A stretch of DNA of 64,000 bases, from contig CAVQBK010000006.1 in NCBI GenBank assembly GCA_963710755.1, forward strand, positions 128,001 through 192,000, written 5' to 3'. Every line of letters starts with the position of its first letter. Within the stretch, counting starts at the first letter, position 1. The translations under genes were made by a program, and so were the position numbers. This stretch comes from an uncultured bacterium (GTDB lineage Bacteria > Oederibacteriota > JAAXVQ01 > JAUVAV01). Below the pieces are notes generated by a model. It was not told the DNA's origin, ran no database searches, and saw nothing but the letters and a program-made list of their open reading frames with translations. This document shows positions 1 through 31,910 of this stretch, piece by piece.

Positions 1-342
1 TACTTTGACCACTATGCCATGGTTGGTCAGTTTATCAGCTCGGATAATGACGTATTTGTCGCTACTTTCCTGAAGTTTCAGTTTAAGTTCAGCTTTTAGT
101 TCATCTTCAGAAACTTCCTTGGAATTGACCGCCATTTTATCGTCAGGATCTATGGTGATGGTGATATTTTCTGCTGATTCCCCTTCATCGGTGACGGCCT
201 TGGGCAATTCCACCTCCATGATGGGCTGACTAAACAACGGTGCTGTAACCATGAAAATAATAACCAACACCAGGCACACATCCACCAAAGGCGTTACATT
301 GATATCGGATATGGCTTCATCATTGCTACCGCTTGCACCCAT
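1..342 (-). CDS. exbD: Biopolymer transporter ExbD/TolR family protein, second copy (runs off window start; not in ORF track)
   Basis: Manual translation from ATG at 342: MGASGSNDEAISDINVTPLVDVCLVLVIIFMVTAPL...KYVIIRADKLTNHGIVVKV; contains the ExbD/TolR INVTPLVDV motif with the conserved TM Asp. Confidence 0.9.
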   Translation of the reverse strand, partial: MGASGSNDEAISDINVTPLVDVCLVLVIIFMVTAPLFSQPIMEVELPKAVTDEGESAENITITIDPDDKMAVNSKEVSEDELKAELKLKLQESSDKYVIIRADKLTNHGIVVKV

Positions 343-359
343 TTAACCTGCCTCCAGAA

Positions 360-806
360 TTAACGCTTGTGCCTACCTTTTTTCTTGGCTAGTTTTCCCA
401 TTTTTGGTTTACGCATGATGGACAAGCCTTCCGCCCCGCTTTGTTTGGCAATGTCCAGAACTTGAACCACCAATCCATGCTTGACATCATCATCACTGCT
501 AATCGTCACCACTTTGTTTTTATTTACTTTTAATTTAGCGGTCATCAGCGCCGGCAGCGCTTCAATGGAGACGGCTTTATCATTAAGGTAGATATTATCT
601 TTGGTCAGGCGTACGGCCACGGATTCATTTTGCGAAACTTTTCCTTCCGCGGCGTCAACCTTACTGCTACCGACAATAATCCCCGCTTGCATGGTCAGAG
701 GTGCCGTCACCATAAAGATGATGACCAATACCAAACACACATCGACCAACGGTGTAACATTTATTTCCGAGATGGCATCTTTTCCACCGCCACCGCCCAT
801 ACCCAT
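360..806 (-). CDS. exbD: Biopolymer transporter ExbD/TolR family protein
   Basis: EINVTPLVDVCLVLVIIFMVTAP motif and C-terminal D..VKHGLVVQVLDIAK; start moved from 836 to ATG 806, which follows a GAAGGAGG Shine-Dalgarno. Confidence 0.9.
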   Translation of the reverse strand: MGMGGGGGKDAISEINVTPLVDVCLVLVIIFMVTAPLTMQAGIIVGSSKVDAAEGKVSQNESVAVRLTKDNIYLNDKAVSIEALPALMTAKLKVNKNKVVTISSDDDVKHGLVVQVLDIAKQSGAEGLSIMRKPKMGKLAKKKGRHKR

Positions 807-1059
807 AGTGGTAACGCCTCCTTCTTGTGCTTGCATCCATCAAACCGGCAGCGCCGGAATAAATACTATTTTTCACGCAACCTCGGCAAAATCCACACCT
901 TCATAACGACAGATTATTCTTACTTACGCCTGGTTATCGTCCTTTGTGTAAGTGAATGAACGCCTGTCTATACATAGTTCGGTTAACCTTAATTCCAAAA
1001 CCACGCGCAGTTAACTTTTCAATTGCTGCTAATGCGTCGTCACGTCGTTCACGAAATCC

Positions 1060-1710
1060 TTAAACGGCTTTCCTTTTGCCGGCTTGTACTTCCCTGTTTT
1101 TCAAAATAGTCAAAAAGCGTTTTTGTACGGCTTCCATTTCCGTATTCATGGTCTTGACCTTGCGCATGAAGAAGTTAAAGACCACCACGCAGGGAATGGC
1201 CACGGCCAAGCCTGCCGCCGTGGCGACCAAAGCTTCGGCAATACCTGCCGCCACCACGGTGGGACCGCCTGATCCGGAAGCTGCCAAATCATGAAAGGCT
1301 TTAATAATCCCGACCACCGTCCCAAACAAGCCGATAAAGGGAGATGAACTGCCCAGGGTGCCCAGCACGCCCAAATATCTTTCCAATTTGACATGTTCCT
1401 CTTCCCGGGTAGCTGTCATCAATTCATCCAACTGGTGATAATCGAGTTCGCGGTTTAATAGGCCGACGCGAAGTACAGCGGCAACACCACTGCGATCGCG
1501 TTCACAAGCCGCAATGGCTTCCTGATAATTTTCATTTTCCAAAGACATTTTTATCCGGGATAAAAACCGGGTGGAATCCACCCTGGCGCGACGGTAAAAA
1601 AGAAACCGCTCCACCATGAAAGCCACGGCTAGAATGGAACATACCGATAGAATCATGAGGGTAAACGAACTTTTAAAAATTTCTACAAAATCCAGATTTC
1701 CGAGATCCAT
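1060..1710 (-). CDS. exbB: MotA/TolQ/ExbB proton channel family protein
   Basis: Three TM segments; SPFIGLFGTVVGII and GIAEALVATAAGLAVAIP signature motifs. Confidence 0.93.
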   Translation of the reverse strand: MDLGNLDFVEIFKSSFTLMILSVCSILAVAFMVERFLFYRRARVDSTRFLSRIKMSLENENYQEAIAACERDRSGVAAVLRVGLLNRELDYHQLDELMTATREEEHVKLERYLGVLGTLGSSSPFIGLFGTVVGIIKAFHDLAASGSGGPTVVAAGIAEALVATAAGLAVAIPCVVVFNFFMRKVKTMNTEMEAVQKRFLTILKNREVQAGKRKAV

Positions 1711-1730
1711 GTGTGACGCCCCCTTGCTTA

Positions 1731-4700
1731 TTATTTCTTTTTGGATTTTTTACTATTTTTTTTCTTACTGCTGCTTTTTTGGGTAGCTTTTGTTGGTTTG
1801 TTTTTTTGAGCAGCCGCTGTGGTTTTTGGTGCTTTATGTTTCATAAAGTCATCCACCTCGGCAGCATGCTCCGCTCTAATCACCGCCATTCTGGCTTTGG
1901 CCGCTTGTTGCCATTGGGGTTGTGCCCCGGAGCTGGCCAAATCCTGATAAACATCAAAGGCCGGGCCCCATTTTTCCAATTCCTCATACAGGCTGCCAAG
2001 TTTGGCCAAACCTGTCAATCGATAAATATCATTAGCCGGTCTGATGGAACGCACATCCTCCAGGGCCTTGGCCGCATTTTCTTTGTCCTCCATATTCATG
2101 TAGGCATCCGCAATGGAGTAAAGAATCTCATTTTTCTGATCCGCAAAATCCTTGTTACCTACCATTTCCCGGTAAATTTTAATGGCCGATGGATATCGTT
2201 TCTCGTCACGATAAGTATTGGCGATCTGCAACAAGGATTCTTTGGCCTTGGGATCGTCGGGAAATTTTTTATAGAATTCGGTATATTTTTCGATGGCCTG
2301 ACGCCATTTTTTCATTTTTTTATAACACAAGGCGATGTTATACAGAGCATTGGGCGCATAATCCGTTTTGGCGTGAAGATCCACAATTTCCTGGTAAACC
2401 TCGATGGCCTTATCATATTCTTCCTTGGCAAAGTAACCTGTGGCCAGACGAAAACGCACATCCACCACCAGCTCATGATCAGGGAAGTTACGGATGAACG
2501 CCTGATAGCTGCGCAAGGCTTTGTCCTTGTCTCCGGCGGTATCATCACAAATAGCAATATAATATTGGGCATTAGGCAGCAGAGAACTTTCAGGATAATC
2601 GGCAATCAGTTGCTGAAATGCTGCCACGCATTGTTTTAAATTTTTCTCCTGATAATAAATTTCACCGACGCGGTAAAGCGCGTCAATGGCCAGGCGGCTA
2701 TTGGGAAAGTTGGTTACAAATTCCATCAGCTGGGGCACGGCATCAGCACTGGCGCCTTTGCGGTAATAGCTGAGTTGAATGCCCTCGATCGCTTCCTTGA
2801 CTTTGGGATCTTCCGGATATTCGTTAATGAATTTCTTGTAAGCCGCGATAGCCTTGTCATCCATTTTTGCATTGTAATAACATTGGGCCACATGGAGCTG
2901 GATTTCCTTGCGGTAGGGATTTTCCTCTTCCGGCCATTGTTTCAGCATTTCATATGCCGCAATGGCTTTGTCATACTGCTGAGCTTTAAAGAACGTGTCG
3001 GCCATCTTATAGGCTGCTTCCGGCGCTTTCTCACTTTGCTTGTAATAAGTGACCACTCTATTCCAAGCATCAATAGCATTTGCATAGTATTCCAATTGAT
3101 AATAAGCCTGGCCGGCGTAGAAATAAGCATCGCCGGCTTCTTTCATTTTGGGGTTGCCTCGGGCAAATTCTTCATATTTGACTATGGCGTCTTCATATTT
3201 GCGGTTGTTGAACAGGCTGTGAGCTTCCATGAGGGTCGCATAAGTTACCAATTTTGGTTCAACGTCTTCCGCGCCAGCCAAGTCCTTAGCCGTGCGTTTA
3301 GCTTTGTTGTAATCGCCTAATTCAAAATAACTGTAACTCAATCCCAGCTTGGCCCAATTGAGTACGGGAGAATCGGAAAAATTATCGGTGATTTTTTTGT
3401 ACTGATCGGCGGCTTGAGAGAACATGCCCATATGGTAATAGGCTTCGGCCAAATAAAAATAGGACAATGAACGCCAGATACTTTTAGATGGCGGGAAATT
3501 GGCGGCCAACACTTTTAAAATATAATGGGTAGTGGAAATTAATTGTTCATATTGTTTGGGAATATAATAGGCCATCTGCAAAGCCGCCAAGGCAGCGTCG
3601 GAAACATCAGAATATTTGTATTTCATCAAGATATTTTGGTATATGGGTATGGCCTGTACATAAATCTCCTGCTTGAAGTAACTGTTGGCGAGTAAATAGG
3701 TGGCCAACTGAACATTTTCATGAACCGGATAGGTGGAAAGGAATTGCTTGAAGGTGTTTAAGGCTTCTTTGGACTTATTGGTCCGGAGCATGACCCAGCC
3801 CGATTTAAATTTCGCACTGCCCGCCACATAGGTATTGGGGAATTGCTGGCCCACTTTGGTATAAACGGCAATGGCTTCTTCATAGCGCTTCAGATTTCTC
3901 AGACATTCCCCTTTCAGATACATGGCATTGGCCATGATATCCGAGTCCTGACCGCCGGCATTGAGCAGTTTCTCAAAATCAACCAGTGCTTTTTCAAATG
4001 CCTCCTGGCGTATTTCCGAGACCCCCAGTTTATAGAGTGCATAGGTGCGGTATTTAGATTGAGGATATTTCTTTAAAAAAGTGTTGAATTCCGTGACTGC
4101 AACCGGATAGTTTTCACCTTTGTAGTAGGAATCAGCTTTATTAAATGCGGCATCCAGGGCATAGATAGAATCGGGAAAATTTTCAACCACTTTTTTATAA
4201 CTGGCCGCAGCAGGCAGGAAACGATTTAACTTGTCCAGACATTGTCCAACATAGTACGTGGCCATATCGCCATCAATGCTTTGGAAATACTGAAGAGCCT
4301 GGGCATATTGCTTATTGTGATAGTAAACCAGCCCTAATGGCATTTTTACTTTTTTCTCTTTTCGGTAATAGGGATAGCGCTCGGTCAGTTCCCCGATTTT
4401 AGCGGAAGCTTCCCGCCATTTCTTCAGGGCAATATAACTTAATATCTGGCCGTATAAGGCTTCAGCACGGTAAAAGGTGCCCGAATATTTCTGCAGAAGC
4501 TCCGTCCATTTGGCGATCGCCGTTTTATATTCCTTTTGATTGTAATAACATTCCCCGATACGATAAAAGGCGGAATCAGAAAACAATTCCCGCGGGTATT
4601 TCTTGCCAAATTCTTCAAAGGCATTGGCTGCTTTATTATAAAATCCCTGCTGGTAGAGCGTTTCTCCCACCATGTAGGCAGCCCTGGCAGCTTCCGGCAA

Positions 4701-4910
4701 ACGGTTGAATTTGTTGGCAAAATCCTTCCATTCCTTGGTCAGCTCTTCATTTTTAATATCCACCACCGTGCCGTCAAAAAGCTGCTGCCAACTTTCTTCC
4801 GCTTGTTTTACCAACTCCTGATCATCAGCCCGCACCGCCTGTACCATCACGGATGAAAAAATCGCCATACTTACCAGGATAGTAAAGAAGCCTTTTCCTT
4901 TACTTGACAT
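1731..4910 (-). CDS. Large periplasmic tetratricopeptide-repeat protein (CpoB/BamD-like repeat pairs) with Lys-rich tail
   Basis: Signal peptide from probable ATG 4910 (MSSKGKGFF...AVRA); many A.Y..G..YY....Y..A...F......YP repeats; ORF track extends to 4967. Confidence 0.85.
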   Translation of the reverse strand: MSSKGKGFFTILVSMAIFSSVMVQAVRADDQELVKQAEESWQQLFDGTVVDIKNEELTKEWKDFANKFNRLPEAARAAYMVGETLYQQGFYNKAANAFEEFGKKYPRELFSDSAFYRIGECYYNQKEYKTAIAKWTELLQKYSGTFYRAEALYGQILSYIALKKWREASAKIGELTERYPYYRKEKKVKMPLGLVYYHNKQYAQALQYFQSIDGDMATYYVGQCLDKLNRFLPAAASYKKVVENFPDSIYALDAAFNKADSYYKGENYPVAVTEFNTFLKKYPQSKYRTYALYKLGVSEIRQEAFEKALVDFEKLLNAGGQDSDIMANAMYLKGECLRNLKRYEEAIAVYTKVGQQFPNTYVAGSAKFKSGWVMLRTNKSKEALNTFKQFLSTYPVHENVQLATYLLANSYFKQEIYVQAIPIYQNILMKYKYSDVSDAALAALQMAYYIPKQYEQLISTTHYILKVLAANFPPSKSIWRSLSYFYLAEAYYHMGMFSQAADQYKKITDNFSDSPVLNWAKLGLSYSYFELGDYNKAKRTAKDLAGAEDVEPKLVTYATLMEAHSLFNNRKYEDAIVKYEEFARGNPKMKEAGDAYFYAGQAYYQLEYYANAIDAWNRVVTYYKQSEKAPEAAYKMADTFFKAQQYDKAIAAYEMLKQWPEEENPYRKEIQLHVAQCYYNAKMDDKAIAAYKKFINEYPEDPKVKEAIEGIQLSYYRKGASADAVPQLMEFVTNFPNSRLAIDALYRVGEIYYQEKNLKQCVAAFQQLIADYPESSLLPNAQYYIAICDDTAGDKDKALRSYQAFIRNFPDHELVVDVRFRLATGYFAKEEYDKAIEVYQEIVDLHAKTDYAPNALYNIALCYKKMKKWRQAIEKYTEFYKKFPDDPKAKESLLQIANTYRDEKRYPSAIKIYREMVGNKDFADQKNEILYSIADAYMNMEDKENAAKALEDVRSIRPANDIYRLTGLAKLGSLYEELEKWGPAFDVYQDLASSGAQPQWQQAAKARMAVIRAEHAAEVDDFMKHKAPKTTAAAQKNKPTKATQKSSSKKKNSKKSKKK

Positions 4911-4963
4911 GGTATACCCCTTTTGATTGTAATGATTTACTATTGTTCCGGGAAAGAGCCTGA

Positions 4964-6214
4964 TCAATCCAAAGACAACCCTGTATCCCCACCCAGAGGC
5001 ACTGCGCTCTGTATTTTCACTGTTTCAATGTTGGATTTGATCACCTTGCCGTTACTATCGGTGGTGATTAATTGAGCCGAAAAATTTCCATCAGGAGCCG
5101 GTAATCCACGATCATCCTTACCGGTCCATACAATCTGGTTTGGCGGATTTTCTTCGCCGGACCAGGATTTTACAATATCGCCATTTTGATCTTTAATATT
5201 AAATTCCCAATCACGAATAGGATACTTTGACACCGCCGTAAGGGCAAAGGTGGTGGTTTTTTTGATACCCACAGGAGAAAATATTTTCGGATTGGCCTTG
5301 ACCGTAATTTCAAATCCACCAAAAGAGTAACCTGCTGAAATCTTGTGAGAAATTCCCAAAGGTTCAATCCCGGCAGCATAATCAAGGGTAATATTCATGT
5401 ATTTGGCGCCCACGCCTGCCGAGACCCGCATTTCATCATCCAGCCCGGCCCGGACAAAAGCCATGTCCTCATACACATCCAATTCACCGCCGACCTTCCA
5501 TTTGATCGAAGGCTGGGGGCCAAAAGATTTACTCACATCCACATCCAGAAGTAAATCGTCATTGAACAGCATACCCCCAATGCCCAGGACAGCCTTGCCG
5601 AAGTAGGTATCGCCCAACACTTGTGGGGTCAGAGCATTTTGCAGGTATAGGCCAATCTGCATTTCCGGTATGGGCCGGTAAGTCCCACCCACATCAATAC
5701 CCACACCCGTGCCGGTATGACCAAAGAAGTTGTCATAGGCCACTTTAACACTGGCACCGGCGGAAATATTAGACATCAAATCGCGGGCATAACTTAGATA
5801 GAAAGACCCTTGCATCATGGAACTGGAAAAATCGCTGCTGACGTTATAATTTTCATCACGAACATCGAAGCCGGGGGACGTCAAGGCGATAATCCCCACC
5901 CCGATATTACCCACTTCCCTAATCGGCATGGCAAACCCCAGGAAGTCAAACATGGTGTTTTCAAACAAAATGACATGCTGCACGCCGATCTGGATTGGAT
6001 TTTGATTAGCCAAGCCGGCAGGATTATAAAAAATAGCGCTTACATCATCGGCCAACCCGGCCATAGCACCGGCCATACCGGATGCTCTGGCACCAATATC
6101 ATAACTCTGATATTCCCCGGGCAGACCGCTGTCGCCGGTGACGGCTGCAGCCGGTGTACTCCAAGGAATTAATGTCATCATTGCCAAACAGACCATCAAG
6201 AGCATTTTTTTCAT
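4964..6214 (-). CDS. PorV/PorQ-like outer-membrane beta-barrel with C-terminal FlgD-Ig-like domain
   Basis: Signal peptide; GARASGMAGA...DDVSAIFYNPAGLA N-terminal motif; LDYA...LGISHKIS barrel end; then PKIFSP...IVWTGKDDRGLPAPDGNF. Confidence 0.8.
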   Translation of the reverse strand: MKKMLLMVCLAMMTLIPWSTPAAAVTGDSGLPGEYQSYDIGARASGMAGAMAGLADDVSAIFYNPAGLANQNPIQIGVQHVILFENTMFDFLGFAMPIREVGNIGVGIIALTSPGFDVRDENYNVSSDFSSSMMQGSFYLSYARDLMSNISAGASVKVAYDNFFGHTGTGVGIDVGGTYRPIPEMQIGLYLQNALTPQVLGDTYFGKAVLGIGGMLFNDDLLLDVDVSKSFGPQPSIKWKVGGELDVYEDMAFVRAGLDDEMRVSAGVGAKYMNITLDYAAGIEPLGISHKISAGYSFGGFEITVKANPKIFSPVGIKKTTTFALTAVSKYPIRDWEFNIKDQNGDIVKSWSGEENPPNQIVWTGKDDRGLPAPDGNFSAQLITTDSNGKVIKSNIETVKIQSAVPLGGDTGLSLD

Positions 6215-6293
6215 CAGTTGGTCACCTGCTTTCTTGACGATTAATATTTTTTAACACCATCCTAAACTTCTTTATCCTTTTGCGTCGGGAAAA

Positions 6294-9200
6294 TTAATTC
6301 CCTTTATAAACACCCAGTTTAAAGCGTTTGCGTTCCTTGCCATTGACCTTGACGAGCACGATATAGCCGCCGTTGGCGATGGTAACACCACTATCGTTTT
6401 TGCCCAACCAGCTCACTGAGTTGACGCCTCGTTTGGCTCCAGGCTGATCGGAGGGGATGGATTTGGTCCATACCAGATTACCCAACAAGGTGTAGATTTC
6501 AATCTTCACGTCAGCCGGTTCGTCCAGCTTGTAATCAATGTGCGCAACCTGACCCAGGAGAGGATTGAAGGGGTTGGGATAGACGCCGCCTTCGCCCGTG
6601 ACCGTCACATTCATGGTCAGTATTCCCGTGGCGCTGCCCGCATGGGCGGTAATGGTATGTTGCAAGTTTTCCGCCCGGGCGATAAAGGTCGTTTGTGCCG
6701 TGCCATTGGTGGAGTTGGTTGCGGTCTGGGTCAAGCTCAACGTACTGGTCGTGGCACCATTGGCCGTCAGGTCAAAAGTAACCGGTGAATCAACGACATA
6801 GTTATTATTCACATCCAGCACCTGGGCATAGATAGGCACGTTGTGGTTGGCCTCGACTTGATAAGTGGTGCCTTCCACTAAATTATCGGGATCACTGGAC
6901 ATCAGGATCCGTGATGGTGCCGAAGCGCTAACATCAATGCGCGGCGAATAACCTGGAGCCACTGGATAAAGATCCCCGGCATCAAGATCATGAGCCCGTA
7001 TGTAAATCGTCTGGGCCACGTCATAGGTCTCATTGGGAATGTCGCAGACACCATTCAGGATTTGACTTGTATTGATGGACAAGTTTCCGGAAGCCGGTGT
7101 CAGCGGAGAAATGCTGCTGTAAACATCGAGTACAAATTGTTTGGTTAGCGAAACAATCTGATGGAGCGTGTCATGGACCACTTCCACCCTCACATTAAAG
7201 GTACTGGGATGGGCTTCCACCAAAACAGTTTGGTTATCCGACACGCGGATGCCATTAATAACCAATTCATAATGGAACAAGCCTGTCTGAGATATCTGAA
7301 GATAAGCGACCGTTTTAGATTCAGCACCATCGATAATACTGCCATTGGTCAGGTCATAAGGGGTCAATGTCCTCAAGCCATTGCTACGCAATTGGGCATT
7401 GAACCAGGCCCGGCCGCCACTTAAGGTATCATTCAGGAACGCCCCGGAATTGGGTTCCGCTCCGCTATTGGGATCATCAGAACGTAGTTCAATGGAATTA
7501 GTCGGCGCGCTGCTGCCTACAAAGTTACCGAACAAGTCCACCGCCTGAACCGTGACGGCAAAGTAAATCCCTTCCACTTCAATGTTACCCTCATAAGTAG
7601 TGCCGGTTAGGCCTGAAACACCGCTATACCAACTATTAGCCGGCAGACCCTGCACAGCCCCGGTGGCCAGGCCGGAATTACCGCTGCCTTCCACGGCGGT
7701 CAAGCCGGGCACCAATATCTGAAGTCCATAATAAGCACCGGGATTAACGGTAATATTGGGCGTCGTTCCATCCGTCGCTGTCACGGTCGTCGGACTAAAA
7801 GTAATGGTTTGCGTTCCCTTGGTATGGAATCTGAAGGTATTGGTAAAGTCCGCATAACCATTGATATTATCCACCTGTTTATTGATCGGTGGCGGTGAGT
7901 AAGGGTCGGATGTATCAAGGGACACATTAAAAGACGGCGTGCCCTTCACAATATTGCCGTAGATGTCGCAGGTATAGGCCCGCAGGGCCGAAGCATGAAT
8001 CCCGGCTGTTTCCGCCGAAGGATTACCGAAGTTGTTAAATACATTTACTGACGCAGGTGGCGGTGTGGAAGGATAAAGCGCGCCCGTGGGATCCACATAA
8101 GTACCACCGGCACCCAAATCATCGGGAATACTCATGCCTGTGGTATAGGCCACCACCCGGGCAAAAGAATTATTAAGGACATTGAAATTTTGGGATACGC
8201 CGGTACGGCCTCCGGCGCCAAAATCATAAGCCGCGGTCAGAAATTCCCCGCCACCGGTAACCTTTTTGTATACATAAATCCAGGGATAGGAAATACCTTC
8301 GGTCCACTTGGTAGCATCAAGCGTACCCATTTTGGTAGGCCACATGCTCTTATTGCTGATATCCGTATTGGCGCTCAAATTAACACTGGTATAGGTCCCA
8401 AAGGCCACGCCGCCATTGAGTGAGTTGAGGGTGTTGCCGTAACAATCCACAGCTGCCACGGTGACGGCAAAGGGTGCACCCGCTACCGCTGCACCGCTGC
8501 TGAAAGCGGCCTGGCTGGTATTGATGATAAAGTTAAACCTTCTGGTCCTGCTGTCATAAGGTGAAACAATATCCAGATTGGCTGCCGCATGTTTGACGGG
8601 CACGGCGTTTTTATTGGTGCCAAGAACATAAGTGGTATAGCCGCCTAAATTCACACCGATCTGCTGGCCTGTACTGCCATTAACCTTGTAGAGCACAAAG
8701 CTGTTGTTGGCTTGATAAACACCATTGCTCAGATTCACGGACAAGGTACCACCGCTGAATTGACCCACCCCCAGGATTTGAGCCGGGAAAGGATCAGTAC
8801 AGGTAATGGTGATGACTTTATTGGCATCTTGCGCAGGCGTGGTGACGGTGTTCCAGTAGTCATCGCAGAGATAGAAATCTATCTTGGTAATGGGGCTACC
8901 GGCAATCTGGATCGCCGGCTGGCCCTGGATGGATAACTCGCCTGTGGGGTCCACGTCAGGATTGAGGCCATTGAATAATTCCATGCCCCCTTCTTCCACA
9001 ATCAGCATTTTGGTGGGCACATTATGGCAAATCCTAATGGTGGCTGAGTTGTTCTGGGTCGACCCCAAAGATACGGTAATATTATTGTTTTCAGTAGGTG
9101 TCCGGTTGGCCCTGAACACGGTGACTTGCCCATTCCACACGCCGTTGGTAAAGGTAATGGAGGTGGGACGAATGACCTTCATGGTGGGACTGTGATCAAG

Positions 9201-11999: not shown

Positions 12000-12031
12000 T
12001 CTTTTGTAAGCATTATTTACACAACTTGTGC

Positions 12032-21200: not shown

Positions 21201-21266
21201 TAGGGCAGCGACGAAGGTCAGCATGAACATCATCAAAAACAGTTTTGTTTTTTTCATGGATGTCAT
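12255..21266 (-). CDS. 3003-aa giant surface protein: propeller-like head, two Thr/Pro stalks, Ig-like repeats, CBM-like domain, T9SS type-A-like CTD
   Basis: Signal peptide; ~14 YNG..WLIGG..GKL..YDG..F.DLS repeats; TPT repeats; AG..F.V.VTA.D.F.N....Y.GT..FT.SD Ig-like repeats; C-terminal VYPNPFNP...[14 protein letters not shown]. Confidence 0.85.
12527..14020 (-). repeat. Thr/Pro hexapeptide (TPTxTx) low-complexity coding repeat, distal stalk of the 3003-aa protein
   Basis: About 500 codons of TPT-x-T-x periodicity in the translation. Confidence 0.9.
17742..18975 (-). repeat. Thr/Pro hexapeptide coding repeat, proximal stalk of the 3003-aa protein
   Basis: About 410 codons of TPT-x-T-x periodicity. 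Confidence 0.9.
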
Positions 21267-21514
21267 CCTCTTTTTGTGCCTCTCCCCCGCTTAGTAAGTT
21301 CTTGTTACCGACCGGTTGTTAAACCAAACCCCACAGGCGGCTTTGAAAAAGCTACTTGCTTGGTACCGACATGCCTTTACCCGCCTCGACAAACCAGCAG
21401 ACGCCCAAGGGGTTGCCCGGCCGCTTGTTAGTGTCGGCTGCCGGGGAACCAGGGTTTATAGCTTCATCTTGAAAAAGTCGTCATCCGCGGGACGTATACG
21501 CGCCCCGGCGTGTT

Positions 21515-23176: not shown

Positions 23177-23528
23177 AAAATCACCTCAGCGGATGACTGC
23201 TTAACTTATTGATCATTATCGTTATTATAATTTTTATATAAATATATTTTGTAATTATTTCGTTATTTATTTTATATCAGTTGCATATTTTTATCAACAT
23301 ATTTTTTTATTTATCATTTTATTTATCATATTATTTGCAATTTTATCTTTCTATTGATAATAGTCTTACCAAATACAAACAACCCATATCCTTTATTTTA
23401 CTTCAAACAAGGCCAATGCAGAAAAACCACTTCAACAAAGTATCGGTTTAAAAGAAAATTTATTAAATGGTTTTTGGGAATTTAAGCTGAACCAAGGTTG
23501 ATGGGGCCTGGCGATAAAACTGCAAAAT

Positions 23529-23558
23529 AAAAAAAGAGGCACCTCACTGTGCCCCTTT
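23529..23558 (-). terminator. Intrinsic terminator downstream of the 1406-aa gene and ncRNA candidate
   Basis: GGGGCAC-AGTGAG-GTGCCTC followed by T7 on the minus strand. Confidence 0.75.
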
Positions 23559-23778
23559 AGGTCGTTCTTGTTGCAGATAGCAATCGTTGTTGTTTCTAGT
23601 TTCCGTTACCTCGGCTTGGTTTTAGCCGGGGTTCAGGATGAATAAAAATTTCTTGCTCCTTATGCCAGCCTAACTTGGTCCGGGTGATTTTCCAGATTTT
23701 GGCTAAGGCCTGCCGGACTACGAATCCAACCAGGTGTCCTTGTCTTATCAAAACTAGTTAAGAGGCGTTGTGCCTAAA
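23556..23778 (-). ncRNA. Candidate multi-branched structured RNA of unknown family
   Basis: Nested complementary segments (TTTAGG/CCTAAA, CTAGTTT/AAACTAG, AGGA/TCCT, CCTTAGCCA/TGGCATAAGG, CGGCT/AGCCG); no ORF; ends at a terminator. Confidence 0.4.
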
Positions 23779-23796
23779 GTTGACTTTAAATCAATC

Positions 23797-26700
23797 TTAT
23801 CTGATGACAATTAGTTTACCCGTATAAGTACGGCCATTTTCTTTTTTCAAAATCCAGAAATATAATCCCGAAGCCACATCAGATCCTGATTGATTTTTCC
23901 CCTTCCATTCATAGCGGTTGCTCATCCCGGTCACTTCGATAACCTTTTCCCCGGATACCGTAAATATTCTTAAATGATCTCCCGGTTCCACACCTGTAAA
24001 TTTACAGGTGCCATTGAAAGCCCGTTTGGGGTGATAAGGATTAGGATAGACTCTGACCTCGGTTATGGGGGTGGACGTGGACGTAGGCGTCGAGGTGGTG
24101 GTAGGGGTTGTAGTCAGCGATGCAAAAGGCGTTGCAGTCAAGGTGACCGTCGGTGAAATGGTCAGGGTGACGGTTATAGTCGGCGTCCAGGTAAAGGTGC
24201 TGGTGACCGTAAAAGTTGCTGTAGGTGTGGGGCTGACAGAAATCGTCGCCGTGGCCGTGGCCGTATAAGTCATGGTTATCGTCGGGGTAATGGTGTGTGT
24301 GCCCGTTGGCGAAGCAGTCCGCGTAGCTGTAAACGTCGGTGTGGTGGTGGGCGAATGCGTAAAGGTTGCCGACGGTGTAAAGGTCACCGTCTGAGTGGGG
24401 GTGTCCGTTATGGTTGGCGTGGCGGTGGCTGTAGCCGAGGCCGTGGCTGTACGCGTAAAGGTATAGGTTGGCGTTACGGTGGAGGTAGGTGTAAAGGTGG
24501 GGGTCACAGTGGGCGTATGGGTAAAGGTAGGCGTAGCCGTACGTGTGGGTGTGGCGGTGCGTGTGGCCGATGGCGTGAACGTAGCGGAATGGGTAGACGT
24601 GGGTGTAAACGTCGGCGTGGCCGTATAGGTGCTGGAATGAGTAAAGGTTGGTGTGGCGGTAGGCGTGTCGGTGGACGTCATTGTAAAAGTTGATGTCGGT
24701 GTCCAGGTGGGCGTGGTGGTGGGTGTAGGTGAATGAGTACTGGTGTAAGTCGGCGTGACGCTGGGTGTTGCTGTAAATGTGGGAGTAGCGGTACTGGTTG
24801 GTGTCCAGGTCGGCGTATAAGTCGATGTCGGCGTCCAGGTCGGCGTGACCGTGGACGTCGGTGAATGAGTTGAGGTAAAGGTGGGGGTCGCGGTATTGGT
24901 AGGCGTAAAGGTGGGGGTCGTGGTGCTGGTTGCGGTTACGGTTCGTGTGTGAGTGGACGTTGGCGTCCAGGTCGGTGTGACCGTGAACGTCGGTGAATAG
25001 GTGGAGGTAAAAGTGGGTGTCGCGGTATTGGTAGGCGTAAAGGTTGGCGTAGTGGTACTGGTTGCGGTTATGGTTCGTGTATGAGTGGATGTTGGCGTCC
25101 AGGTCGGTGTGACCGTGAACGTCGGTGAATGGGTGGACGTCGGCGTCCACGTAAAGCTGGGCGTTGCCGTAGGTGAATGGGTGCTGGTAAAGGTTGGGGT
25201 TACGGTCGGTGTGGCTGTCCCGGTGGGTGTATGGGTTGATGTAGGTGTATGGGTAAACGTTGGCGTTGTGGTAAACGTGGCCGTGACGGTAGGTGTTGCG
25301 GTTTTGGTTATGGTAAAAGTAGGCGTCGCCGTGGGGGTATTGGTTGGGGTAAAGGTCGGTGTCGATGTGGGCGAATGGGTGGAGGTAGGACTCCAGGTCG
25401 GGGTATGAGTAAAAGTCGGTGTGTGAGTAAAGGTTGATGAATAAGCCGGGGTTGGGGTCGGCGTATCGGTCGGCGTATGGGTTGAGGTTGGCGAAAAAGT
25501 TGATGTCGGTGTGGCCGTAAAGCTTGGGGTATAGGTGGGGCTGATGGTCATGGTGCCCGTCGGCGAATGGGTAGATGTGGGCGTACCGGTAAAACTGGGC
25601 GTCGCCGTCGGCGTATGCGTAAAGGTAGGCGTCGCCGTGGGTGTAAAGGTGGCTGTCGGCGTGTGAGTGGAGGTGGGTGTAAAGGTGGGTGTAATCGTAG
25701 AAGTCGGCGTGGGTTCCACGTAATTAATGTTCAAGGAACTGATATAAGGAGAAATTTCGACATTGGTGGTCTGCAAATCCGCCCGCCAGCGCAGATCATT
25801 GCCGCTGTTGATAAAGGTCCAGTTGCTACCAGGTGTTACCGGCCCTTCCCAGTGCGTGCCACCGTCCGCGGTAAGATAATAATCAATGGATTGACCATTC
25901 AAGGTTTGATTGACGGTTAACAAAGCGCTGATAAAATAACTGCCCGTGCTGGCCACGTTAAGGGAATAACCGCTGCCCAAGGTACTATATTCAGGACCGT
26001 ATTTATTGATCCGCGCCTCACTGCCCCCGATCATCCAGTAGGTGCCGTTCCAGCACAGCGTATTGATGGCCGAGTTACCGTAAGCCACCAGATTAGCGGA
26101 AACATCGGAGATGGAGGACCAATCATAGGTATTGATTTTGGCGTGGTCTCCGGCAATAAACCAGTAGCTGTCCTGCGGGTTGTAACCTACCGCATAGACG
26201 GCGTCGCTGGAAAAGCCCGATAGGGTTTCCCAATTGGTCACCCCGAAATCGGGGTTATAGAGACAAACTTTTTGGGGAGAGCTGACACCGCCGATCATAA
26301 ACCAATCAAATCCGCCGTGATACGTATAGGCAATATCATTAATGTCTGTAAAACCGCTAACCGCAGCGACCGGGGAAACCGTACTGCCGTCATAGATGGC
26401 CAAACTACCAGATCCGCCGCCAATCAGCCACTGCCCGCCCCCATAGGCCAAAGCTTTAACATCATCAGAAACACCAAACACGGCCGCCAGACTTACCGGT
26501 GTAAAGGTTGACCCATTGTAGCGCACCAACTGCCTGCCGGTACCACCTATCAGCCAATAACTCCCGTTCCAGCGAATGCTGGTGATGCTTCCCGCAAAAC
26601 CCAAAGAAGCCGTTAGATCTGTTGCTGTGCCACCTGCATACCGCACCAACTTACCCGAGCTTCCGCCAATCAACCAATAACTGCTGTTGCCATCCGCGGC

Positions 26701-28017
26701 CAGCACATTGGCCGTACCCCAGCCGGCGGCGGCCAGGTCACCGCTGATATCCTGGAAGGTCAGGCCATCGTAGGCATTCAAACGGCTATTGTTGCCCCCC
26801 AGAATGACATCACCGTTATCGTTATCAGCGGCAAAGTTGATGTTGTAGATACCCATATCTTTCAAATCAGAGGTAAAATCAGTAAAACTGGGCAGGTTCA
26901 ATGATCCGACACGCTTATTCAGACGAGCTTGTTCCCCGCCGATCAGCCATTCGTCCGAACCAGTGGTGCTGTTGTATTCAATACAGTAGATAGGATTACC
27001 AGACCCAAAGCCTGTGAGTTGCGATGATTGATTAAGCCAAGTACTACCACCGTCCCATGCATACAACACAGGAGCCAAGCCTGTCCCATTGCCGCCAATC
27101 AGCCAAAAACCGCTGGCCGTATTGTAGTCGATGGAAAAAATATTATTCATGCCCGTAACGTTGGCCGATAAATCCGTAAAAGTGGTTGTGCCGTTGAAGG
27201 AGACCAATTTCCCGCCACTGCCGCCAATCAACCATTTGGTGCCGTCCCAGGCGAGAGAACGTACAGTGTTGTTGCCAAAAGTGGTACGGAATTGGGCACT
27301 TAAATCATAAAAGACGCCGCCTTGGTATTTGCTCAAGCAGCCGCCATCGCCGCCCAGCAGCCAATAAGAACCGTTAAAAGCCACCGCATAACCATTGGTG
27401 GTGTTGGCAAAAAAACCTGCCCTGCCCGACATATCGGTAAAGGTAGAACCATCATAACTGTTCAGGCGCCCATTATTGCCCACTATCAGCCAAACCGAAT
27501 CCGTGGGGCTGCCGCCGCCATAACGCACGGCATTAATATCCTGACTCACCCAATTAATCAGCCCACCTGAAAGATCGGTAAAAGTTGTACCATCATAACT
27601 GTTTAGCTTTTTACCAGTGCCGCCGATCAGCCAGGTGCCACTCTGGTGCCAAATGGACATGATTGTGCTGGTACTATAATTGTCCAGGTCGGGAGAGAGA
27701 TTGGTCCAACTGGTCCCGTCATAGCTGTTGAGCTTGGCGCCGGCGCCGCCAATAAGCCACCGCCCGCCTGGTTGCCCATTGTGGTGAATGGCGCGAATCT
27801 GGCCACCCCAATTGATTAATCCGCCTGGTTGGGAGAAGCTGTAGGAAGAGGTCAGAAGCAGCTGCCGTTTGATGGTATTCCAATCGGCCGTGGTTGCCGG
27901 ATCTTTGTAAGTGGTGGTGGCAAAATTTTCAGTATAACTGCCCGCCCAGCTCAGCGCCGCCATCTGCCAAAGCCATAACGCGCTGAATAGAACCATCCCT
28001 CGTCTTTTCCAGTGCAT
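23797..28017 (-). CDS. 1406-aa surface protein: propeller-like head paralogous to the 3003-aa protein, Thr/Pro stalk, T9SS type-A-like CTD
   Basis: Shares [17 protein letters not shown]...[23 protein letters not shown] with the 3003-aa protein; C-terminal VYPNPYHP...[16 protein letters not shown]. Confidence 0.85.
24066..25713 (-). repeat. Thr/Pro hexapeptide coding repeat including a 132-bp tandem duplication
   Basis: TPT-x-T-x periodicity; identical 40-mer GTTGGCGTCCAGGTCGGTGTGACCGTGAACGTCGGTGAAT at 24959 and 25091. Confidence 0.9.
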
Positions 28018-28054
28018 AAAGCGTCCCCTCTACAGCTTTTAATTTGGTAAGGAA

Positions 28055-28618
28055 TTAGATATTAAACTCTTTACAGACTTCCCCACTATTGTCCTGTATG
28101 TATTTGACAGATTCCATAATTTTATCTTTTTCCGCCTTGCCCACGGTAGCTTTGTTAATATTATCAGCGATGGCTTTGACCGAGGTCTGGATCCCGGCAA
28201 TCACCTCGCGGTCACGACGCACATATCCCCGCAGCCGTTCCGTCATCTCATTAAAAGATTCTTCCAATTCCCGTAATTCATCACCTTTTCTCAGATTAAC
28301 TTGAATTTTAAGATTGCCATTAGCCACTTCCCGGGCACACATGACAAACCGGTACAACGGACCGGCCACTTTGTGGGAGAGGTAAACGCCGACTGTAATA
28401 TTACAAATGGTCAGGAACAAAATAACAGCCAGAACAGCTTTATAGATGAAATAAATGTTGGTTCCCGGGATTTCCGGTTTGGGTTGATTAAGCACAAAAA
28501 AAGTGGCAATGCCTACAATGATAATCTCTACGATCATGGTAAAAATCAAAATCAGGGAATACTTAAACTGCAAATCCATATTGATGTAGATTTGTTTGCG
28601 TTTAAATGTCTCAGCCAC
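28055..28618 (-). CDS. Small two-TM HAMP-domain protein with short coiled coil
   Basis: Two hydrophobic helices, then SHKVAGPLYR...VANGNL...LRKGDELRELEESFNEM HAMP pattern. Confidence 0.75.
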   Translation of the reverse strand: MAETFKRKQIYINMDLQFKYSLILIFTMIVEIIIVGIATFFVLNQPKPEIPGTNIYFIYKAVLAVILFLTICNITVGVYLSHKVAGPLYRFVMCAREVANGNLKIQVNLRKGDELRELEESFNEMTERLRGYVRRDREVIAGIQTSVKAIADNINKATVGKAEKDKIMESVKYIQDNSGEVCKEFNI

Positions 28619-28720
28619 TTAGGTCACCTCGTATAATTTTTTACAGCTTTTCTATTTTAATAAAATACGCACATTCCTCTACGGTTTATGAATTCCATCC
28701 GTTCGCGAATAATGGCCTTT

Positions 28721-28748
28721 GTAGGGAACGGTCACGACCGTTTCCTAT
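28721..28748. repeat. GTAG-type REP-like palindrome
   Basis: GTAGGGAACGGTCACGACCGTTTCCTAT, imperfect 28-bp palindrome in an intergenic region. Confidence 0.75.
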
Positions 28749-28914
28749 AACGACCTTTTGCAAGAAACTGTCTTCACTCCCCTGAATCCGCCAGCCGACG
28801 CCGCGTCCCTACCCAAAGAAGGGCCGGAAGTAAATAACGCCATCCTCAAAAGCAAATCGTGTTGATAAAGAGTTTATCAAGCTGTCGCCCAATGGTCAAA
28901 CCGTGCCCATGGCC

Positions 28915-30171
28915 TTATTCAAATTCAAGAGGCGACACCCCCAGGGGGAGCACACTTTGAATCGTCACATAGGTGAGCGGAGCTTGTTTTACATCGCCGG
29001 CGGCATCTTCAATGGTAAAGACCACTTTATATTTCCCATCGGGCATGGGATTTAAAGTATCCTCCATCCCATCCCAAACGATGTGTTCCGGCGGCGAGCC
29101 TTCACCGGAATATTTTTTGACCAAGGTATTGGATTCATTAAAAAGCTGGACCGACCAAACCCTAACCTGTAATTTTGTCTGGCAAAGTAGTTTGATAATA
29201 GTGACTTTATTGATGCCTACCGGAGAGAATTTATCCGGCTCCGGCCGTGCCTCCAAAATAAACCCTCCAAAGTAATAAGAAAGATCCACCCGGTGCAGCA
29301 GGCTTTCATCTTCCGTTAAAAAGCCGATGGCATAGTCCAATTGTATATCACTATAGCGGTAGCCCAAACCGCCGGTGAATTCCTGTAAATCATAGCCCGC
29401 CCGGACAAAGACATTGTGCATTGGCGAGCCTTCCAGTCCGAAACGAACCTTCAGCTGATCCTGATCCATGTTTTTAGCCAAATCCACATCCGCTTTGAGC
29501 CTGTCCCCCCACAACTTCGTGGCAATACCAAGCGTCATGTTCATGGGATAAACGTCGGCTACCTCTTTTAATTTAATAGAAGGCGCCAACAGATTTTGGA
29601 AACTCAAGCCCAGGTTAAGGAAAGGAAAGGGATGGTACATTAGGCCCAAATCAAAGCCGAAACCGGTAGCAGATAAGGACATCATGGTTTGATTAACGAT
29701 TTTCAAGGTCCCGCCACCGGCCAGCTGTGGCGTAATATCCATGCCGAAGGCGCCGAGAAAGGCGAATTGGTTGTTGGAGAAACTTTCAGTGACTTCATTA
29801 AATGTATCGCGGCCTTCGGCTGTGCCCTGATTCAGAAAAGTCAGTCCAACCCCCAGAGTGCCGACATAAGGTATAATATGAGAATATCCTAAATACTGGA
29901 AATTATCACCGTCCAGCAATGTCATGTATTGCAACAGCACTTGATTCTGCGAAACACTGGTCAAGCCGCCGGGATTCCAATAAGCAGCAGTAGCATCATC
30001 GGCAATACCTACAAAAGCGCGTCCCATGCCAATAGCCCTGGAACCGGCCCCGTAAGTTAAAAAAGTGCCCGCCTGACCGGCATCAGTATCAATGGCTAAA
30101 CCCTGGATGGGCATGCCGACCAGCACGGCTGCTAATAAAATAAATGTAATTTTTCGCATGTTTAAGGTCAT
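28915..30171 (-). CDS. PorV/PorQ-like beta-barrel with C-terminal FlgD-Ig-like domain (paralogue of 4964-6214)
   Basis: FLTYGAGSRAIGMGRAFVGIADDATAAYWNPGGL; PDKFSPVGI...IVWDG...MPDGKY; ATG overlaps the upstream stop (TAATG). Confidence 0.82.
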   Translation of the reverse strand: MTLNMRKITFILLAAVLVGMPIQGLAIDTDAGQAGTFLTYGAGSRAIGMGRAFVGIADDATAAYWNPGGLTSVSQNQVLLQYMTLLDGDNFQYLGYSHIIPYVGTLGVGLTFLNQGTAEGRDTFNEVTESFSNNQFAFLGAFGMDITPQLAGGGTLKIVNQTMMSLSATGFGFDLGLMYHPFPFLNLGLSFQNLLAPSIKLKEVADVYPMNMTLGIATKLWGDRLKADVDLAKNMDQDQLKVRFGLEGSPMHNVFVRAGYDLQEFTGGLGYRYSDIQLDYAIGFLTEDESLLHRVDLSYYFGGFILEARPEPDKFSPVGINKVTIIKLLCQTKLQVRVWSVQLFNESNTLVKKYSGEGSPPEHIVWDGMEDTLNPMPDGKYKVVFTIEDAAGDVKQAPLTYVTIQSVLPLGVSPLEFE

Positions 30172-31910
30172 TATTTTATTACCCCCACCCGTCGTTTAAA
30201 TTCCTGCGTTTTACCAGAACTCTGAGCCCTGACTTTGACCAGATAGATCCCGTTGGCCACGGTTCTACCCTCCCCATTCTTACCATCCCACATCCAGGCA
30301 GCGCCGCCCTTGGAGGTGGCGCTTAAGCTGATGGGATCAGTGCTGTCCTTGTCAAAGTTTTTAGCCACCACCACCCGGCCATAGGGATCGTAAATGCGTA
30401 GTTCCACATTACTGTTGTCTTCAAGATAGTAGTTGATGGAAGTGGTTTCATTGCGTCCAGGATCAAAAGGATTGGGGTAATTGACGATGGCCCCGGCCTC
30501 CACAGGCGCTACCGAAACCTTCACCGTCACACTCTGGTAAGCGTAAACCGTGGAGGAGACATTATCGAGCACGGCCACGTCCAACACCACCGCTTCATTG
30601 ATCGTGCCGGCTGTATAGGTACTTGTGGCCACACCTTCATTGGTTGAATTGTCACTGCCGGTGGTGGTGGCTGTCACCGACAAATAACCATTGGTGCTGG
30701 TGTTATGGAAGGTCACATGAAAATCATGGATATTGGAAGAAGTTTTATTGCCGTATTGGTCGTAAACCGTGGCTGAAACAATGGATTGATGATTGGACTG
30801 GACTTCGCTGGGGCTAAGGCTAAGCGACACACTGGCAGGAATGTTGGGGAGGATGGTTATGGGCGCTGAACTGACAGCATAAACGGTGGTACCATTAATG
30901 GTCAGTTGATGGGCTTGCAAATAAATCTGCGTAGCTTCCCGGAAATAGCGGTCATTAAAATATTTCACACCATTTTGCACAGTGAAATTAGCCAAATTAT
31001 CTCGATTGGGATTGTTGGCCAATTCTTCGTTGTTCGACAAATAAAATTTCTTAAATTCAAAGTAATCATTATTGTTGGTCAAAATGCCACCAGGCGCATT
31101 AGGATCAGAGGATGCTTTGATGGAAACGGATACATAAAAATCCTCTCCTGCATAGACCTGGGAAGGTGTGCTGATATGGGCAAACCCGGCAGTAGAGGAA
31201 AAGGAGGTGAGGTAGACAGGCGTGAAGGTCAGCCCTGGTGTGGACCCAAATCCTACGGTAACCAGGCTTCCTGTCAAGGAACCGGTCGTGGTTTCGATAG
31301 TGGAATAGCCTATCCCAGCATTTATAGGTATGGTAGAAGAAGGATGATAACTCATTCCTACTTCATTGGCCATTACCGTATCGGTGTAGGAATTAACTCG
31401 GTTATAATAAGCATCTGTGGCCAACAGGGTCACACCGTAATAAACGCCTTGAATGACGTCAGGATAATCACCACCTTGAACCACCGGAGTTACACCCGAA
31501 TTCACTCCTGGAGTATGAGTCTGTCCTGGAAGTATGATCAATAATTGACTGACAACATTAGCTGCAACCGCTACTTGCGTATTACCGTTTGCACTACCAT
31601 CGGTGCAGGAAATTTCATTGGCGCCTGCAGCTTTCAATCGAACAAAGCCCTTCCAAACACCGGCAGTAAAATTTTCGGATGTATTAGGGCTGATTGTATC
31701 CGGATAAGTATTATTGGTTAAATCAACAGTGCCAGAGAAGGTCGTGGACGGGATACCAGGAGCATCGTAGGCTGTAATAGTGATAGGGGTATATTCCCCA
31801 GCCGTAGGATTTGTTGCTGGATTAATTTCTAAAAGGAAATGAGATAAAGAATAACTTTGTAATGGAAGAAAGAATAGTGCGGAGATAATCAAGAAAGTTG
31901 CTTTTCTCAA
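30171..31910 (-). CDS. 579-aa secreted Ig-like protein with FlgD-type T9SS-like CTD
   Basis: TTG start after AAGGAGG; signal peptide; LLIILPGQTHTPG unit as in the 1901-aa protein; NYPNPFDPG...WDGKNGEGRTVANGIY. Confidence 0.8.
   Translation of the reverse strand: MRKATFLIISALFFLPLQSYSLSHFLLEINPATNPTAGEYTPITITAYDAPGIPSTTFSGTVDLTNNTYPDTISPNTSENFTAGVWKGFVRLKAAGANEISCTDGSANGNTQVAVAANVVSQLLIILPGQTHTPGVNSGVTPVVQGGDYPDVIQGVYYGVTLLATDAYYNRVNSYTDTVMANEVGMSYHPSSTIPINAGIGYSTIETTTGSLTGSLVTVGFGSTPGLTFTPVYLTSFSSTAGFAHISTPSQVYAGEDFYVSVSIKASSDPNAPGGILTNNNDYFEFKKFYLSNNEELANNPNRDNLANFTVQNGVKYFNDRYFREATQIYLQAHQLTINGTTVYAVSSAPITILPNIPASVSLSLSPSEVQSNHQSIVSATVYDQYGNKTSSNIHDFHVTFHNTSTNGYLSVTATTTGSDNSTNEGVATSTYTAGTINEAVVLDVAVLDNVSSTVYAYQSVTVKVSVAPVEAGAIVNYPNPFDPGRNETTSINYYLEDNSNVELRIYDPYGRVVVAKNFDKDSTDPISLSATSKGGAAWMWDGKNGEGRTVANGIYLVKVRAQSSGKTQEFKRRVGVIK

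Follow-up and report, generated by a model that had tools for sequence, protein, structure and literature searches.

According to the available parts of the cited accounts, the secretion system of type IX (T9SS) is treated as confined to the Bacteroidota and as driven by PorLM (PMC12618676), and PorE, PorP and PG1035 make up a wall-anchored complex, in which PorE carries a tetratricopeptide repeat (TPR) domain (PMC9143113, PMC12618676). The Agl-Glt core complex of Myxococcus (AglR, AglQ, AglS, GltD, GltE, GltC and GltG) recurs in Gammaproteobacteria, Geobacter and Fibrobacter in copies whose function is unknown, and the Myxococcus motor extends to a platform in the outer membrane and to an adhesin at the surface (PMC3169522). 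In Fibrobacter succinogenes, a cluster of FSU_2396 (OmpA), FSU_2397/2398 (TPR), FSU_2400 (ExbB), FSU_2401/2402 (ExbD) and FSU_2403 (TonB) was induced on cellulose, its TPR and OmpA proteins were reported to form a complex with surface enzymes presumed to depend on the T9SS, and the motor was interpreted as a cellodextrin-uptake system (PMC6851124). The present analysis concerns a stretch of 64,000 nucleotides (nt) from an uncultured bacterium (the window, positions G000:C6:128001-192000 of the source genome G000), in which the genes of a giant surface protein with a secretion-type C-terminal domain (CTD) and of a PorV-type outer-membrane barrel stand in one operon with an ExbB-ExbD-ExbD-TonB motor and a giant TPR protein.

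The novelty lies in the combination of a motor of the Ton/Tol/Agl type with an outer-membrane module of the T9SS type, each half being of a known type. From its gene content, the cluster likely marks an undescribed cell-envelope machine. The reading favoured here, with moderate confidence, is a proton-driven machine which would anchor, display or move the giant CTD protein on the PorV-type barrel. The genomic tie of barrel, cargo and motor genes is not chance adjacency, since it is kept in relatives, in paralogous copies and in reshuffled gene orders.

The eight-gene motor operon and its conservation

The source genome had a size of 3.44 Mb in 13 contigs and was 98% complete. Close relatives among public genomes carry the labels candidate division FCPU426 or Candidatus Firestonebacteria, which places it outside the Bacteroidota and led to the rejection of an assignment to the Omnitrophota, and the literature on FCPU426 consisted, by title and among the matches listed, of community surveys. 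One soil DNA sequencing run contained 0.23 of the sequence words, and no RNA run was among the matches listed. Proteins were scanned with Pfam and NCBIfam models against the curated cut-offs, and with own hidden Markov models (HMMs) where stated. An initial annotation, made from the letters of the window, had described co-oriented genes for CTD cargo proteins, three PorV/PorQ-like barrels, a TPR protein, ExbB and two ExbD proteins; all of them were real open frames on the minus strand, as was every gene of the locus, and the description was thus confirmed.

The conserved unit consisted of eight genes. The first (6294-11999, minus strand) encoded a secreted protein of immunoglobulin (Ig)-like repeats, 1,901 amino acids (aa) long and ending in a CTD, which passed the FlgD_ig model (32.7 bits vs cut-off 27) and stayed below TIGR04183 (15.9 vs 23). 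Leaving the CTD aside, it was orthologous over residues ~25-1785 to syntenic proteins of 1,783-1,939 aa in relatives, with 336-377 bits in the distant families.

The second gene (4964-6214, minus strand) encoded a barrel of 416 aa with a C-terminal FlgD_ig domain, which scored 94.6 bits in the PorV/PorQ family model NF033709 (cut-off 90). In its AlphaFold2 (AF2) model, with a mean predicted local distance difference test (pLDDT) score of 75, 14 strands and a C-terminal beta-sandwich were present, and an acidic tail was conserved in the alignment of orthologues. The top Foldseek matches were the PorV of Flavobacterium johnsoniae in the SprA complex (6h3i_F, E 1.8e-8) and 8gl6_F, followed by the channels FadL, TodX and TbuX (E 4e-7 to 2e-6); the FadL Pfam model was not passed. 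As regards the fold, the barrel was thus best matched by PorV and not by a FadL-type transporter, in line with the initial assignment of the barrels as PorV/PorQ-like. All three barrels of the window exceeded the family cut-off, while the equivalog models of PorV (at most 40 bits vs 250) and PorQ (at most 88 vs 220) were not reached. The C-terminal Ig-like domain of the 416-aa barrel is predicted to be periplasmic.

The third gene (1731-4967, minus strand) encoded a secreted giant TPR protein, with a longest frame of 1,078 aa and 352 bits for TIGR02795 in 10 stretches. It was composed of CpoB/BamD-like TPR units and a Lys-rich tail, and its conservation was even over the full length, so no binding region could be chosen. 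Met20 was nearly invariant in the orthologues, and a start there would give ~1,059 aa and a normal signal peptide. The overlap of 4 nt with the barrel gene existed only for the longest frame, and the start at Met20 leaves a spacer of 53 nt; at the orthologous loci, the barrel and TPR genes were separated by short spacers (11-151 nt) or overlapped. The protein reached 120.9 bits in the PorW/SprE model, below its cut-off of 250.

An ExbB/TolQ-type proton channel of 216 aa (1060-1710, minus strand; PF01618 112.8 bits) came next, one of three MotA/ExbB-family genes in the genome, two of which are non-flagellar. It was below the equivalog cut-offs of TolQ (139 vs 221 bits) and ExbB (94.7 vs 206), as were its ExbD partners for the ExbD equivalog. 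Two ExbD/TolR paralogues followed, of 158 aa (ExbD1, 360-836, minus strand; PF02472 89.7 bits) and of 134 aa in full (ExbD2, 1-342, minus strand, the last 62 nt lying left of the window; PF02472 90 bits). The membrane Asp was intact in both (TPLVDV in the first), and the order of ExbD1-type and ExbD2-type genes was kept in relatives.

A TonB-like gene had been suspected left of position 1, and it was found there together with a further gene of the operon, both on the minus strand. The TonB-family protein of 344 aa (G000:C6:126892-127926) had a TonB_C domain (PF03544, 49.2 bits vs 24.6) and a linker rich in proline, and its S-x3-H membrane motif was conserved. The last gene (G000:C6:125958-126887) encoded a secreted Ig/OmpA-like protein of 309 aa (P309) without Pfam or NCBIfam match, for which an AF2 model (pLDDT 70) gave a conserved disordered N-terminus, an Ig-like sandwich and an OmpA/MotB-like domain (target-normalised template modelling score 0.5-0.62). 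No plug-bearing TonB-dependent receptor was present inside the operon, and eight were found elsewhere in the genome. Riboflavin genes come after the eighth gene. Further left, a frame of 462 aa, transposase-like by eye (G000:C6:119816-121204), interrupts housekeeping genes between nusB and an infC-like gene.

A sigma-70-like promoter (TTGACA, 18 nt, TATAAT; 12061-12032, minus strand) was located ~33 nt upstream of the 1,901-aa gene, inside the gap of 255 nt after the 3,003-aa gene. Judged by consensus match only, it was the sole 12/12 site among 17 such sites in positions 1-13000, and it is likely the start of the eight-gene operon. The sigma-54 motif was also tried and rejected, with 79 matches at up to two mismatches vs 82 expected and none in the gap (12000-12255).

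The suspected linkage of cargo, PorV, TPR, ExbB and two ExbD genes was borne out in relatives. At ExbB-orthologue loci from 20 of them, the orthologue of the 416-aa barrel gene stood directly before the TPR gene in 18 of the 19 assessable cases; L055 was without it, and L063 could not be assessed, its contig ending inside the TPR gene. The linkage was kept where the identity was only 43-55% for ExbB and 26-42% for the barrel. In a sample of 41 genomes of the phylum, a gene like that of the 416-aa barrel was present within ~7.5 kb upstream of ExbB in 21 (matched by hand), which were all 15 genomes of the closest families f1 and f2, G000 included, and six of the eight from f4, f7, f10, f12 and f14. 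The genes upstream of the 1,9xx-aa gene varied among relatives.

Paralogous copies and metagenome contigs gave the same picture. Six of eight paralogous ExbB loci in relatives showed one or more CTD genes, a PorV barrel, a TPR protein of ~1,010-1,030 aa, ExbB, one or more ExbD, TonB and a P309-like gene, with another cargo (~310 aa) and with the P309-like gene either before ExbB or at the end. Among 19 metagenome loci, the full order was observed in nine, the cargo-PorV pair had moved behind the P309-like gene in four, and six were too short or unresolved. Within the source genome itself, a second conserved cluster (G000:C1:215936-222805, L066; also L155 in a relative) encoded a TPR protein of 1,008 aa, a TonB-dependent-receptor-like barrel of 591 aa with no plug match, ExbB, one ExbD and a TonB of 231 aa. 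A giant TPR gene before ExbB is thus a general habit of the lineage.

Type IX secretion parts and PorV-family barrels in the genome

The initial annotation had supposed that core T9SS genes could lie elsewhere in the genome, and this was right for the translocon. A SprA/Sov homologue of 2,138 aa was identified (G000:C1:68813-75229; TIGR04189, 253.1 bits vs cut-off 200), and SprA-like frames occurred in 38 of the 41 phylum genomes at E <= 1e-15, seven of them over the cut-off, by six-frame search. The sprA-like gene is followed by a tandem array of six genes for plug-bearing TonB-dependent receptors of ~675-755 aa (G000:C1:68813-87600 with the sprA-like gene, partly L067), which are six of the eight such receptors of the genome. 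The genome further held two TonB_C proteins and two non-flagellar ExbB genes.

The motor components PorK/L/M/N (GldK/L/M/N) were not found. GldL and GldM (TIGR03513 and TIGR03517) were absent from the two lineage genomes searched (G000, 98% complete, and G007, 100% complete), and as a positive control the same two models matched all four control genomes having a gldKLMN operon. GldK (TIGR03525) had no candidate in the source genome, though the model picks up distant FGE-sulfatase relatives in control genomes. Neither was GldN (TIGR03523) found there, by a model which recognises four control proteins. Own HMMs built from the four control operons gave no match in the source genome better than E 2.4. 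GldM and GldL were also not found in five metagenome-assembled genomes (MAGs) labelled Bacteroidetes, Cytophagia, Ignavibacteriales and Zixibacteria, nor in 16 genomes of one class among these; such MAGs are uninformative as controls for GldL and GldM because they were without GldK too. Since the searches found none of the four, the description of the motor as standing "instead of PorKLMN" is fair within the reach of the models. What the genome held, then, was not a complete canonical T9SS beside an unconserved linkage: PorKLMN were not found, and the linkage was conserved.

For PorU, the best candidates in the source genome were two C25-peptidase CTD proteins (1,161 and 1,173 aa) with 70.3 and 57.8 bits vs a cut-off of 420. 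The genome also has a gene for the flagellar hook and a stator pair of MotA and MotB (G000:C3:511346-514821), so the organism probably swims.

Barrels of the PorV family were abundant, with 43 matches in 40 frames of the source genome, of which 29 were over the cut-off. The expansion is large for a genome of 3.4 Mb (loci L007-L036). A CTD gene lay directly upstream on the same strand for 24 of the 40 genes, and an own iterated HMM found 62 proteins with this type of CTD, three of them being barrels. The pairing was common in public loci of many phyla (Zixibacteria, Ignavibacteria, Elusimicrobia, Calditrichota and others), where 75 of 80 had a PorV-family gene by own HMM and 49 of these 75 had a CTD gene directly upstream. 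Only one of the 40 PorV-family genes of the source genome, that of the 416-aa barrel, adjoined motor genes. At L081, in a MAG labelled uncultured Cytophagia, a CTD protein of 1,600 aa and a PorV-family barrel of 692 aa are followed by two large proteins (606 and 447 aa) that match ExbB weakly, at 28 and 33 bits; this is possibly another, separate instance of a PorV pair next to genes of the MotA/ExbB type.

Many of the PorV paralogues were extended. Among the 16 long ones scanned in the source genome, a C-terminal OmpA domain was present in seven (two of these also with FlgD_ig), and TPR repeats exceeded the cut-off in three. Both ends of a 14-strand FadL/PorV-family barrel face the periplasm, so the fused modules (OmpA, Ig and TPR) come to lie there, beneath the barrels. 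Parts which are separate in the operon therefore occur fused to PorV barrels elsewhere. This expansion with many periplasmic extensions (OmpA, FlgD_ig plus OmpA, TPR) suggests wall-tethered anchors, not freely diffusing shuttles.

The remaining genes of the locus, upstream of the operon, were of the same paired kind. In order of transcription, all on the minus strand, they encoded a CTD protein of 579 aa (30171-31910; TIGR04183 27.2 bits vs 23, FlgD_ig 34.9 vs 27), a PorV/PorQ-family barrel of 418 aa with a FlgD_ig domain (28915-30171; NF033709 127.9 vs 90), a frame of 187 aa (28055-28618), a CTD protein of 1,406 aa (23797-28017; CHU_C 24.9 and Por_Secre_tail 18.2, both below cut-off), a barrel of 553 aa with a C-terminal OmpA domain (21515-23176; NF033709 133.4 vs 90) and a CTD protein of 3,003 aa (12255-21266; CHU_C 28.3 vs 27), after which the 1,901-aa protein, the 416-aa barrel, TPR, ExbB and the two ExbD genes follow. 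The last ~95 residues of the 1,406-aa protein matched the C-terminus of PorZ (E 1.2e-13). The 187-aa frame, located between a CTD gene and a PorV-family gene, had only a HAMP domain and N-terminal hydrophobic segments, without kinase or output domain.

YPNPF-type ends had been attributed to four proteins of the window. The motif YPNP(F/Y) was present in three of them (YPNPF in the 1,901-aa protein), while the 579-aa protein has NPFDP. As for the models, the TIGR04183 cut-off was reached by the 579-aa protein only, the 3,003- and 1,406-aa proteins not being listed for it; Pfam models passed for three of the four, FlgD_ig for the 579- and 1,901-aa proteins and CHU_C for the 3,003-aa protein. The initial annotation had also taken the whole 32 kb as one system, which did not stand. 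Only the 1,901-aa and 416-aa pair belongs to the motor operon, with its own promoter-like site, and the rest resembles the ~24 pairs scattered over the genome. The genes at 12255-31910 look like upstream neighbours outside the conserved operon, that is ordinary cargo-PorV pairs, because the upstream genes differ in relatives and the layout matches the pairs found genome-wide.

A proposed proton-driven surface machine and its competitors

In the favoured reading, the SprA-like translocon would take the 1,901-aa CTD protein across the outer membrane, and the CTD would keep it attached to the barrel, in the manner of PorZ with PorQ or SprB with SprF. On the periplasmic side, the assembly would comprise the Ig domain of the barrel, the TPR protein and the Ig/OmpA protein that binds the wall. 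ExbB, ExbD1 and ExbD2 would pass the proton-motive force through the TonB-like protein to the outer-membrane assembly, and the surface protein might thereby be loaded, released, or altered in its shape or position. The predicted chain would run from a 5:2-type stator with two ExbD proteins through a TonB-like transducer, a long TPR scaffold, the wall-binding Ig/OmpA protein and the barrel to the giant Ig-repeat protein.

Several points weigh against this proposed machine. No linkage was detected at the thresholds used in 20 of the 41 phylum genomes, which are seven whole families and two f4 genomes. A paralogous pair in the source genome (G000:C3:134154-141023), composed of a 1,869-aa Ig-repeat CTD protein and a 413-aa barrel with a FlgD_ig domain, 49% identical to the 416-aa barrel, has no adjoining motor genes. 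The 416-aa barrel had no recognisable TonB box, its N-terminal motif was common to the motor-less paralogues, and most CTDs were near or below the curated type A cut-off. Only two TonB_C proteins exist for the eight receptors, the one in the operon being the stronger TonB_C match, and it may simply serve the plug-bearing receptors. In addition, TolQ and TolR were the best curated matches, the TPR units are CpoB-like and the last protein is OmpA-like, and the motor half is explained just as well by a reading as a Tol-Pal-like system.

The strongest competitor, unlikely but to be taken seriously, is built on these last points. The genes from TPR to Ig/OmpA would form a general Tol-Pal-like or housekeeping Ton energiser, for envelope integrity or uptake, and the cargo-PorV pair would be co-transcribed with it and undriven. 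TolQ and TolR headed the NCBIfam matches (139 bits, and 85.3 and 73.2 for the two ExbD proteins), the OmpA/MotB-like fold of the last protein and the CpoB-like units of the TPR protein would suit it, and no TolB was over the cut-off in the source genome (best 121 bits vs 343). The housekeeping riboflavin genes directly downstream and the second TPR-barrel-ExbB-ExbD-TonB cluster, in the source genome and a relative, also speak for it, and a housekeeping role keeps some weight because the operon holds one of two TonB systems in a genome with eight receptors. Every Tol equivalog, however, remained below its cut-off, namely TolQ (221), TolR (127.3), TolA (21.1 bits vs 59.45), TolB and CpoB (NF008068, 109 vs 383), and the C-terminal domain of the transducer is TonB_C and not TolA. 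Paralogous copies with different cargo-PorV pairs and a link which survives reshuffling are unexpected for a passenger gene, and the OmpA and TPR fusions tie these modules to PorV proteins.

That the module generally powers a type IX pathway lacking PorKLMN, where it would stand in for PorLM/PorKN and energise the SprA-dependent export of all ~60 CTD proteins, is improbable. The inventory would allow it, with the SprA homologue, 40 PorV-family frames, 62 CTD proteins, the two C25-peptidase CTD proteins, no PorK/L/M/N found and only two non-flagellar 5:2-type motors in the genome. The operon contains one specific conserved cargo, however, and relatives have several paralogous modules, each with its own cargo, which looks cargo-specific. 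SprA-like genes are present in nearly all phylum genomes, yet the linkage was detected in about half of them, and the sprA-like gene lies far off, beside six TonB-dependent receptor genes.

TonB-energised import is very unlikely. In this reading, the Ig-repeat surface protein would catch a hydrophobic or polymeric substrate and the FadL-like barrel would bring it in, much as TonB-dependent receptors are fed by binding proteins at the surface. The closeness of FadL, TodX and TbuX behind PorV in the fold search and the TonB system in the same operon are in its favour. FadL-family channels, however, operate without TonB, the barrel passes the PorV/PorQ family cut-off and not the FadL Pfam model, no TonB box was seen in it, and the partner gene has a secretion-type CTD, a pairing which occurs genome-wide. 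That an ordinary cargo-PorV pair sits beside an ordinary Ton operon by chance, to which the single motor-linked gene among 40 might point, is hardly credible. The conservation already contradicts it, as the two remain neighbours at ExbB identities as low as 43%, in paralogous copies and where the gene order is permuted.

The favoured reading of a proton-driven machine acting on the giant CTD protein could be carried further, if only speculatively. ExbB-ExbD-ExbD-TonB-TPR-Ig/OmpA might be the power train of a PorKLMN-less, type-IX-style surface pathway outside the Bacteroidota, which loads, pulls or moves a giant adhesin held on a PorV-type barrel. It might then join the T9SS/gliding motor and Agl-Glt as a third type of surface machine powered by protons, and could be a Ton-like ancestor of the PorLM-driven T9SS. 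This extended proposal is doubtful as a whole.

In any case, the lineage combines a homologue of the translocon with PorV-type barrels and CTD proteins by the dozen, PorKLMN were not found in it within the scope given above, and a Ton/Tol-type motor is linked to one of its cargo-barrel pairs. Should the motor act on this pair, a 5:2 proton motor would gain a client of a new kind in the outer membrane. A concrete candidate role would then be at hand for the orphan TolQR-TPR-TonB "core complexes" (PMC3169522), and a testable route would be given for the evolution of trans-envelope surface machines by swapping of outer-membrane modules. The locus also offers a handle on the display of giant adhesins by uncultured soil bacteria.

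Comparison with known systems

In the available parts of the literature, no description was found of an operon that joins ExbB-ExbD-ExbD-TonB and a giant TPR protein to a PorV-type barrel and a CTD protein; supplementary gene maps (Figure S1 of PMC3169522, Fibrobacter) were outside the scope of this search and may bear on it.

With the Ton system, the locus shares the domains of ExbB (PF01618, 112.8), ExbD (PF02472, 89.7 and 90) and TonB (PF03544, 49.2). Unlike a Ton system with its transporter, the operon has no receptor with a plug and 22 strands, and its barrel has 14 strands and no recognised TonB box. A precedent for a Ton-energised barrel in export is the Oar-dependent secretion of PopC in Myxococcus (PMC6434023, as far as the available text goes).

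A single operon of Tol-Pal (TolQ-TolR-TolA-TolB-Pal-CpoB) likewise encodes a motor of the 5:2 type in the inner membrane, a transducer spanning the periplasm, a TPR partner and an OmpA-like protein that binds the wall. The present operon differs in its two TolR-like genes, in a TPR protein of four times the size of CpoB, and in the inclusion of a PorV-type barrel and a giant CTD protein. The CpoB-type model TIGR02795 passed only as 10 repeated units, and the Pal-like OmpA fold was seen only in the structure model.

The cluster of F. succinogenes, likened here by its description, has the same set of OmpA-like, TPR, ExbB, two ExbD and TonB genes, whereas no PorV-like barrel or CTD gene is named in the available part of that account (PMC6851124). 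The Agl-Glt cluster, too, combines one TolQ-like gene with two TolR-like genes and with the genes of large TPR proteins and of a TonB-like transducer; this is a match of layout only. The TPR protein of the window had no match to the GltC or GltE models at E <= 0.01, and the TPR protein of the second cluster on contig C1 matched them far below the cut-offs (50 vs 450 and 47 vs 225 bits). In the present operon, the part of the outer-membrane partner is taken by a PorV-type barrel together with a CTD protein, an arrangement which does not figure in the account of PMC3169522 as available.

The outer-membrane half of the operon is closest to the T9SS. In the pairs PorZ-PorQ, PorU-PorV and SprB-SprF, the gene of a CTD surface protein likewise lies directly before that of a 14-strand barrel of the PorV/PorP type, so far as the available sources describe them. 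The differences from the Bacteroidota system are that PorK/L/M/N were not found in the source genome and that the organism is outside the Bacteroidota. In comparison with PorE-PorP and SprB-SprF, again as described in the available parts of the sources, the barrel belongs to the PorV/PorQ family instead of PorP/SprF, and the CTD is type-A-like/FlgD_ig instead of type B. In contrast to the PorE-PorP-PG1035 complex, as far as the available accounts go, the TPR part is a separate protein of ~1,060 aa and the operon includes a full ExbB-ExbD-ExbD-TonB set. PorE ties its barrel to the cell wall according to the same accounts, and the Ig/OmpA-like protein of 309 aa would do likewise for the barrel of this operon.

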